From Escherichia coli (GTDB lineage: Bacteria; Pseudomonadota; Gammaproteobacteria; Enterobacterales; Enterobacteriaceae): a stretch of 64,000 bases of DNA. Numbering within the stretch: the stretch's first letter is position 1; every line of letters starts with the position of its first letter. The notes below the pieces were generated by a model, which worked only from the letters and a program-made list of their open reading frames with translations, was not told the DNA's origin and did not search any database. Made by a program: the position numbers and the translations under genes. The stretch is from assembly GCF_044324785.1 (NCBI RefSeq), contig NZ_CP172127.1; one strand, 5' to 3'. Shown in pieces: positions 12,290-13,452 of this stretch.

Positions 12290-12676
12290 TTATTTCGTTA
12301 TCTTAAATGCTATTTCTACATCACTCGTCCTTATAATCAAATTATTCTTATTCATAGCTATTTTTGCAGGTTTAAAATAGCGGCTTTCACCAAAGTCAGC
12401 CATAAAAATTAGACTACAAGTTCTCCCAGCCTTTGCACATGAGAAAAACCACCCATCAACTCTATTTATTCCTGAACCTTTAACACCATAATAAATCAGA
12501 ATTTCTGGGTATTGTTCATCCTTCACGTTTTCATATTTTTGGTATTTAATTGAAAACCAAGAGTCTATACTGCCAACATCTTCAAAAAATATTGGAGCTG
12601 ATGTTTCCGCATGAACATATGCAGAAAATGCTAACAAAATGGCAATACTTAGTTTGGTAAACATATCGTTCCACAC
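12290..12676 (-). CDS. Hypothetical secreted protein; candidate immunity protein for the orphan Rhs toxin
   Basis: 128-aa ORF; Sec-type signal peptide [21 protein letters not shown] (start may be ATG at 12664); AT-rich; immediately downstream of orphan Rhs C-terminal cassette. Confidence 0.5.
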
Positions 12677-13452
12677 TTTTCAGGATAATCTATTGGGGGG
12701 AGGGGATCTTTTCCTCTAAATCTAATTGCACCCACGCCTTGTTTGTCAGACCATTCGCCATTTGCATCCTGACGATACCAGTGATAATCCCCACCCATTC
12801 CTATAAAATTGTGAGGACGAATAAACAATTGAGCTTTATGGTAACCAGATGGACAACTCCCATTATCTAAATCCTTGGCACCATCATTTTTTGACGCTTC
12901 AAAAATACTACTACAAGTGAGTTTAGAAAACTCTTTTCCAGATAATTCTCCAGGTTGTAATCCTCCGCCGCCAAAAATCCTACTCCCAGGATTTCCATAC
13001 CTATTTAGAGCATATGAATAGCAATTATTTACGGCAAGATAATACGCATCTGAATTTAGTTCTCGATTGAATACTGGAGCAGGTTTATCAATTAAGCCCA
13101 GCGGATCAATAGAATAGGTTGGATGTATGGAAGCATATACATACTGATTCCACCCGCCTTCCAGCCCAATCGGATCCTGAGTGATATACCGCCCCTGCAG
13201 CGGGTCATAATAGCGGTGGCGGTTGTAATACAGGCCGGACTCCTCATCATACTGCTGCCCCGGCAGACGGATAAGCTGCTGCAGGTGCTGCGGGTTCTCT
13301 TCATTCAGCAGGTTGCCCCATTCATCATATTCTGCGCACCATTCTGTTGCCCCGTCAGGGCTGATAAGCGTCAGCGGCAGGCCGCGATAGTCGCAGTGGT
13401 AGAGGTGGATTATTCGCAGTGATCTATATGCCAACGTCATCTTATTTTTCAT
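12649..13452 (-). CDS. Orphan Rhs C-terminal fragment (core remnant + DPLGL + variable toxin domain)
   Basis: N-terminal ~115 aa nearly identical to the end of the RhsC core; DPLGL boundary encoded at 13093..13107; downstream ~147 aa unique AT-rich sequence; lacks the remainder of the Rhs core. Confidence 0.6.
13161..13410. repeat. Direct repeat copy A of Rhs core 3' end
   Basis: About 250 bp that aligns in register with 14481..14730, with roughly 18 mismatches by eye. Confidence 0.8.

Follow-up and report, generated by a model that had tools for sequence, protein, structure and literature searches.

What is the function of a truncated Rhs gene that lies behind a complete rhsC gene in Escherichia coli and is itself followed by a gene for a secreted protein? 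The window analyzed here is a stretch of 64,000 nucleotides from the E. coli contig NZ_CP172127.1. It contains a second, truncated Rhs open reading frame (ORF) on the minus strand (12649..13452), which continues past a DPLGL boundary into a C-terminal toxin domain (CT) of 147 residues. An earlier description made from the nucleotide sequence alone (the sequence-only reading) had reported this module, its boundary and its domain, and all three lie exactly where they had been placed. The module is a displaced (orphan) Rhs toxin-immunity cassette. We propose that its CT probably works as a thiol hydrolase in the periplasm and that a periplasmic immunity protein neutralizes it there, with peptidoglycan as the leading guess for the substrate.

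A displaced Rhs cassette

Where does the orphan cassette come from? The same CT and the 124-residue ORF that follows it terminate a full-length RhsC protein of 1391 residues, at the same chromosomal locus, in 40 of the 5,426 complete E. coli genomes searched. This occurrence marks the copy in the window as a displaced cassette. Nucleotide identity to these genomes is 98.6%, and the CT of E. coli strain 1190, one of the 40, is 100% identical in protein sequence to that of the window. An orphan-sized protein from Shigella boydii shares 98% identity across the CT. The combination found in the window, in which an Ntox16-type main gene is accompanied by this orphan, was seen in no complete E. coli genome searched. 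Other E. coli and Shigella strains have long contigs with annotated truncated versions of the 124-residue protein (62-78 residues; P0008, P0011, P0012 and P0186), and the cassette therefore also occurs in a decayed form.

The orphan ORF has neither a PAAR domain at its N-terminus nor a YD shell, which makes it an orphan. Its first 12 residues constitute a non-Rhs leader derived from the junction. Residues 15-51 match the Pfam family RHS (PF03527, E = 3.3e-12), and homology to the full-length rhsC gene of strain 1190 begins at position 13417, the upstream (5') part being junction sequence. The sequence-only reading correctly recognized a retained portion of the Rhs core but put it at about 115 residues; with the leader set aside, the true core amounts to about 108 residues. 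The core ends in a PxxxxDPxGL motif, which is the presumed self-cleavage site that frees the CT in Rhs and Tc proteins. The CT had also been described as AT-rich, in agreement with a GC content of 39% compared with 62% in the rhsC core.

The toxin domain and its family

The CT had been considered unique. It is instead a member of a very large family that carries no name. A word-indexed search found five relatives of the CT, and the profile derived from them was run against 1.84 billion cluster representatives. This search returned 3,433 clusters (50% identity) at E <= 1e-3 and 1,660 at E <= 1e-10. When one genome of each species was scanned, 289 family loci were confirmed, which span Proteobacteria, Firmicutes, Acidobacteria, Bacteroidota, Verrucomicrobia, Actinobacteria, Cyanobacteria, Planctomycetes and Archaea; the archaeal homologues come from Methanosarcinaceae, Nitrososphaerales and Hodarchaeota. 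Among the 150 best family representatives, 115 have the domain ending no more than 10 residues before the C-terminus, and 38 of the 150 best members have a signal peptide of their own. Family carriers include Rhs/YD proteins, and other members are fused to lectin, FISUMP, LamG or Ig modules. One metagenome representative of 838 residues (P0081) combines a signal peptide, an M23 (ShyC/MepM-like) peptidoglycan endopeptidase domain and, at its C-terminus, the toxin-family domain. Its domain composition suggests a possible two-headed cell-wall hydrolase.

The suspicion that the CT belongs to no named family was borne out. Searches of Pfam, NCBIfam, PADLOC and PHROGs yielded no match for the window CT, for its putative immunity protein or for two distant relatives. 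The Pfam searches gave no match to PF00877, PF05257 or related families at E values up to 10, and the family profile matched no PDB sequence at E values up to 10. DUF7689 (PF24738) was matched weakly by 2 of 60 relatives at E <= 1e-3 and not by the window CT itself. The only PDB sequence retrieved with the CT as a single phmmer query, a beta-glucosidase (E = 0.017), was dismissed as spurious.

At the structural level, the family extends to eukaryotes. A Foldseek search of AFDB with the CT model gave eukaryotic matches at E values of about 1e-8 to 1e-7, and a viral-metagenome protein matched still better (E = 6e-10); the AFDB matches are P86982, A0A2B4SPW7, A0AAD9R504, A0AAW2YU97, A0A9P1D025, A0A383WCF6 and A0A6C0C5X6. 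Most of the eukaryotic proteins, from a clam, corals, Acrasis and Cladocopium, are named 'insoluble matrix shell protein 1' (IMSP1; E of about 5e-8, template modelling score of about 0.7), and one is an uncharacterized protein of the green alga Tetradesmus. The dae genes are a known case in which eukaryotes have domesticated cell-wall amidase toxins of bacteria, and by analogy these matches may stem from a bacterial toxin domain that was transferred horizontally or domesticated. A literature search on DUF7689, on the RefSeq and UniProt accessions and on IMSP1 function found nothing informative.

Candidate active site and fold

Which residues of the CT could mediate catalysis? The family consensus reads NNCYSYA...PQPGe.SG...C...DG...CP.GyHK...DYHWYRQD..G.WSHKpG...Y...CG.LC.P. 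Cys24, Pro47, His104 and Lys117 are invariant in all 112 aligned domains, and Asn23, Gly48, Arg107, Ser115, Gly119, Pro133 and Tyr136 are nearly so. The sequence-only reading had singled out a cysteine (NNCYSYALN) and a downstream histidine (GDYHWYRQD) as a potential catalytic dyad, and these are the invariant Cys24 and His104. Position 116, which lies 12 residues past His104, is occupied by His in 88 of the 112 domains (79%), by Ser in 9, by Gln in 7 and by Asp in 3, and it is Asp in E. coli. The motif NNCYSYA appears similar to the GQCWVFA motif of transglutaminase.

The remaining conserved cysteines occur in pairs. Cys60 and Cys80 are both present in 86 domains and both missing from 12, and Cys140 and Cys144 are both present in 86 and both missing from 7. 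This paired presence and absence fits disulfide bonds and therefore extracytoplasmic folding. With the other cysteines paired, Cys24 is left as the single unpaired invariant thiol. Cys60 was tried as an alternative nucleophile, given its position at a helix N-terminus 44 residues from His104, and was rejected because it is found in only 93 of the 112 domains and co-varies with Cys80. An hhalign comparison of the family with E. coli MepS (probability 0.5%) placed the MepS cysteine on Cys60, a non-invariant residue and likely disulfide partner, and was regarded as noise.

An AlphaFold2 model of the CT, built with a 60-sequence alignment, reached a predicted local distance difference test (pLDDT) score of 92.3 and a predicted template modelling score of 0.87. 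Its best structural neighbours are canonical NlpC/P60 and CHAP peptidoglycan hydrolases, from a PDB set that contains Tse1 and Tae3. On the basis of this model, the CT is a predicted thiol enzyme of papain-like alpha+beta architecture that forms its own family, and Cys24 and His104 are the candidate catalytic pair. The likeness to papain-like and NlpC/P60-type hydrolases that the sequence-only reading had drawn from two motifs is thus echoed by the modelled fold past the DPLGL boundary, and no search assigned the CT to a nuclease family or to any other family that acts in the cytoplasm.

The secreted partner

The gene that follows the CT encodes the putative immunity protein. The sequence-only reading assigned it to positions 12290..12676 and identified a Sec signal peptide. 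The signal peptide is confirmed and the start is not. The list of ORFs begins this frame at GTG 12676, but RefSeq starts it at ATG 12664 (MFTKLSI...) in strain 1190, and the homologues that possess an N-terminus align from this methionine, most of them with MF[A/T]KL. Judging from both, ATG 12664 is almost certainly the true start, which gives a protein of 124 residues. Its signal peptide consists of a positively charged n-region (Lys4), a 10-residue hydrophobic core (Kyte-Doolittle value 2.52) and a predicted cleavage site. All signal-peptide calls in this study were made with a simple heuristic of our own that considers the n-region, the h-region and the -3/-1 cleavage rule.

A profile search found 33 homologues of the immunity protein. 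In an alignment of 27 sequences, the signal peptide is present in every member that has an N-terminus, Cys76 is invariant and Cys83 is found in at least 90%. The structural model (pLDDT 81) consists of a helix packed on a beta-sheet, with the signal segment detached and of low confidence; a fold search with this model found no informative structural neighbour and matched no Tai structure.

Are the toxin and its partner inherited together? An Acidovorax locus encodes an Rhs CT and an immunity protein with 54% and 40% identity, respectively, to the window pair, and a Variovorax locus encodes both with 47% and 32% identity. In both loci (L004 and L005), the immunity gene is located directly downstream with the same short overlap. 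The presence of both homologues in these genera indicates that the toxin-immunity pair has been inherited as a unit.

The localization of the partner is conserved more widely than its sequence. At all seven other loci with Rhs or long carriers, a signal-peptide ORF lies directly downstream, and these ORFs represent at least two unrelated protein families; those of L002, L006, L009, L022 and L044 are not homologous to the immunity protein of the window. Since unrelated partners share the same localization, the compartment, rather than ancestry, appears to be under selection. When all family loci are considered, the ORF directly downstream has a signal peptide in 32 of 73, whereas among background ORFs the number is 43 of 339 (odds ratio 5.4, p = 1e-8, by the same heuristic). 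The secreted nature of the immunity protein, as originally suggested, is thus supported by its homologues and by the other carrier loci.

One of these further partner families (134-153 residues, with a signal peptide) is found at L006, L009, L022 and possibly L003 and shows no relationship to the immunity protein of E. coli. Its genes lie behind Rhs-borne members of the CT family in Pseudoxanthomonas, Saprospiraceae and Bacteroidales, and it is characterized by a conserved C-terminal (R/N)(F/S)DS core, such as LELRFDSEEQ in L009.

Another module occurs both within and beside family members. Many non-Rhs members of about 300 residues have no signal peptide and carry an N-terminal domain of about 130 residues with the motif (I/V)D(I/V)FSGRPNPxW...LGYRGF (L017, L019, L023, L034, L035, L037, L040, L043, L045, L046, L049, L051, L053, L057, L060, L062, L064, L066, L073, L078, L080 and L083). 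The same FSGRPNP domain is found in a downstream signal-peptide protein at L025-L027, L037, L051, L053, L057, L059, L060, L066 and L082, a set that partly overlaps with the former. The domain has no Pfam match. Its occurrence in both fused and separately secreted forms looks like that of an inhibitor or pro-domain module.

Organization of the locus

The window displays the gene order kdp-ybfA-rhsC-...-ybgA-phr-dtpD, which is of the E. coli/Shigella type, and the features of the rhsC locus are compiled in Table 1. The ORF that follows the main rhsC gene shows no signal peptide or hydrophobic N-terminus by our heuristic. The CT of the main rhsC gene has a hydrophobic stretch of 14 residues directly past its DPQGL boundary. 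An inverted repeat (TCTACTCCAACGAGTAGA) is located at 13452-13469 (plus-strand coordinates), precisely where the main immunity region meets the ATG of the orphan. It scored as terminator-like on the opposite strand and may be a scar of a recombination junction or a chance occurrence.

Table 1. Features of the rhsC locus in the window
Feature	Position	Strand	Description
Main full-length rhsC	14005..18156	-	1383 aa; PAAR N-terminus, YD shell, Ntox16 CT
CT of main rhsC	14005..14445	-	Pfam Ntox16 (PF15523), E = 8e-13
Immunity-type ORF of main rhsC	13505..14026	-	DUF6714 (PF20461)
Orphan Rhs ORF	12649..13452	-	267 aa: 12-aa leader, core of about 108 aa, 147-aa CT
Core-homology segment	13147..13417	-	blastn, orphan versus main rhsC: 272 columns, 93% identity, rhsC nt 3420-3690
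PxxxxDPxGL boundary motif	13093..13122	-	aa 111-120; read from the translation; end of Rhs core
C-terminal toxin domain (CT)	12652..13092	-	147 aa; GC 0.39
Cys24 codon, proposed nucleophile	13021..13023	-	motif NNCYSYALN; N-terminus of helix 24-29 in the model
His104 codon, proposed general base	12781..12783	-	motif GDYHWYRQD; strand 102-108 in the model
Putative immunity ORF	12290..12664	-	124 aa; overlaps the toxin ORF by 16 nt
Sec signal peptide	12608..12664	-	19 aa; predicted cleavage between VHA and ET, before ETSAP

Proposed mechanism and alternatives

How would such a cassette function? On a full-length PAAR-Rhs protein, the CT would be enclosed in the Rhs shell and released by self-cleavage at the DPLGL boundary. 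A type VI secretion system (T6SS) would then fire the CT into a neighbouring cell, where it would fold and act in the periplasm by hydrolyzing amide or peptide bonds of an envelope component. The 124-residue partner would be exported by the Sec pathway and would bind and block the incoming toxin in the periplasm. The producer would need no cytoplasmic antidote because its own CT would be caged and reduced, without disulfides. In the genome of the window, a newer Ntox16 cassette would have pushed this cassette downstream. As an orphan that is devoid of PAAR and shell, the toxin is undeliverable as it stands. Nonetheless, the immunity gene could still protect the cell against strains that fire this toxin, and the 272-nucleotide core homology, which is a likely recombination substrate with the main gene, would allow the CT to be placed back on rhsC. 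The main rhsC gene is the sole delivery scaffold on hand for the orphan CT, after such recombination. Thus, the window cassette most likely represents retained immunity combined with a recombination reserve.

Several observations weigh against this proposal. Approximately half of the family loci have no signal-peptide partner, by an admittedly crude heuristic. Cys60, like Cys24, is located at a helix N-terminus, and its spacing from His104 is more similar to that of NlpC/P60 enzymes. The scan of the orphan for promoters and terminators gave nothing above shuffled controls and no convincing promoter. No T6SS genes are found within the window, and no vgrG gene adjoins this rhsC locus. Finally, the archaeal and eukaryotic homologues belong to hosts that lack peptidoglycan, and the ancestral substrate may therefore differ.

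The last observation bears on the substrate. Peptidoglycan, in particular its peptide stems, is our leading candidate because of the structural neighbours of the CT, the M23 fusion and the canonical Cys-then-His order. However, the homologues in archaea and in the IMSP1 proteins of clams and corals leave room for a protein or another envelope polymer, as do the apparent likeness of NNCYSYA to a transglutaminase motif and the failure to find a sequence link to any peptidoglycan hydrolase family. The CT could then follow the same toxin-immunity logic at the same periplasmic site and cleave, deamidate or cross-link a protein of the envelope (lipoproteins, outer-membrane proteins and periplasmic enzymes are candidates), or attack a different envelope polymer. 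We consider this explanation unlikely but far from negligible. One family member is fused to a peptidoglycan endopeptidase, and the eukaryotic homologues are themselves compatible with a peptidoglycan substrate, given the precedent of dae domestication.

The site of action and the vitality of the cassette also have to be considered. The CT could be a cytoplasm-acting papain-like protease toxin that resembles Cpe1, EvpQ and TsaP and cleaves GyrB and ParE, in which case the hydrophobic N-terminus encoded downstream would be a membrane anchor or irrelevant. Such toxins are carried by Rhs, PAAR, VgrG and CdiA proteins in E. coli (PMC12136450), and Rhs carriers mostly bear cytoplasm-acting toxins (PMC12994826). 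This assignment is nevertheless highly improbable in view of the AXA-type signal peptide that is kept in every immunity homologue with an N-terminus, the co-varying cysteine pairs that imply disulfides, and the many family members that are Sec-secreted themselves. Moreover, the family profile matches no PDB sequence at E up to 10, in a set that probably includes the sequence of Cpe1, whose crystal structure is available (PMC12136450). It is just as hard to believe that the cassette is a dead relic, unexpressed and non-functional in this strain, that survives by chance. The loss of PAAR and shell, the promoter scan and the decayed immunity fragments of other E. coli and Shigella would all be expected of a relic. 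However, both ORFs are intact, every catalytic-candidate residue is kept, and the CT is identical in protein sequence to that of a full-length RhsC elsewhere. In addition, orphan Rhs cassettes of Salmonella are reportedly reactivated by recombination and provide immunity. We therefore favour the proposal of a displaced cassette that encodes a periplasm-acting thiol hydrolase and its periplasmic immunity protein.

Comparison with known systems

The cassette resembles the Tae1-4/Tai1-4 systems (Tse1-Tsi1, Tae3-Tai3 and Tae4-Tai4) in that a small Cys-His enzyme, which for the CT has a predicted papain-like fold, is encoded immediately upstream of a Sec-exported immunity protein. However, no sequence relationship to these systems is found, although the PDB set searched includes Tse1 and Tae3, and Tae enzymes are stand-alone Hcp/VgrG cargo, whereas the window CT is fused to Rhs. 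The NlpC/P60 and CHAP enzymes (MepS, LytE and phage lysins) share with the CT the placement of Cys before His. Most members of the CT family have His or Asp 12 residues past the candidate histidine, and the MepS triad (Cys68-His119-His131) exhibits this His+12 spacing. The Cys-then-His order is canonical for peptide-cleaving NlpC/P60 enzymes, in contrast to the permuted type, which acts on lipids (PMC12994826). The CT differs from the NlpC/P60 and CHAP enzymes in its Cys-His spacing (80 versus about 50 residues), its extra N-terminal subdomain and its putative disulfides.

Cpe1-Cpi1, EvpQ and TsaP (C39-like; PMC12136450) provide a different parallel, in which a papain-clan Cys-His toxin is carried on Rhs or PAAR in E. 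coli and is followed by a small immunity gene. Cpe1 acts on cytoplasmic GyrB and ParE (PMC12136450), and its immunity protein is presumably cytoplasmic, whereas the window system has a secreted immunity protein, and the profile search of PDB sequences showed no similarity to Cpe1. Tse5, an Rhs effector of P. aeruginosa, is a non-cytoplasmic Rhs toxin whose target, the inner membrane, is reached from the side of the periplasm (PMC9637101). However, Tse5-CT forms pores and is countered by an immunity protein in the membrane (PMC9637101), whereas the window CT is a predicted enzyme with a soluble secreted immunity protein. DUF7689, a weak profile match of some family members, and IMSP1, a fold match, are both uncharacterized and hence provide no functional information.

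In layout, the window resembles the orphan loci of Salmonella Typhimurium and of E. coli K-12 (rhsC-ybfB-ybfO-ybfC), where, behind a main rhs gene and its immunity gene, there is a 5'-truncated rhs that has another CT and an immunity gene of its own. K-12 has its orphan at the same locus as the window; the CT and immunity families differ, and ybfO retains about 330 residues of core, compared with about 108 here. The ybfO CT is unrelated to the window CT. YbfC (L084, 8651-9220), the product of the ORF after ybfO, begins with a signal peptide (MKRVLFFLLMIFVSFGVIA), and a secreted protein behind an rhsC orphan therefore has a precedent. The signal peptide of YbfC raises the idea that K-12 may possess another orphan Rhs cassette that is directed at the envelope and differs from the present one.

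In general, the toxins associated with Rhs and PAAR carriers act in the cytoplasm, such as nucleases, ADP-ribosyltransferases and NADases (PMC12994826). In the system described here, both the toxin family and the immunity family are new, and the carrier is unusual for an enzyme proposed to act in the periplasm, although the logic is familiar.

Biological significance

If our proposal is true, the known cargo of the Rhs cage extends to an enzyme whose immunity protein is secreted, and the question arises of how such a toxin is released into the periplasm. The family is paired with putative inhibitors that are secreted, and one inhibitor family also occurs as a fused pro-domain; this arrangement suggests a zymogen-like regulation. 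A broader view, which we hold only tentatively, is that the E. coli CT is a genetically tractable entry to a huge superfamily, so far without a name, of Cys-His enzymes outside the cytoplasm that would have at least three unrelated secreted partner families, catalyze a reaction unlike those of Tae, NlpC/P60 and CHAP enzymes, and include a rare example of a periplasmic enzyme caged by Rhs. Such a superfamily would comprise over 3,400 clusters (50% identity), from bacteria and archaea to giant-virus metagenomes and the eukaryotic IMSP1 proteins.

For the genome of the window, the significance is modest: the cassette is a spare that is probably a source of immunity at present and that recombination could re-arm. 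For the family, which is large and unannotated, reaches eukaryotes and is testable in E. coli, the assignment of an activity to the CT in this organism would annotate thousands of proteins, including the IMSP1 proteins of the animal shell matrix.

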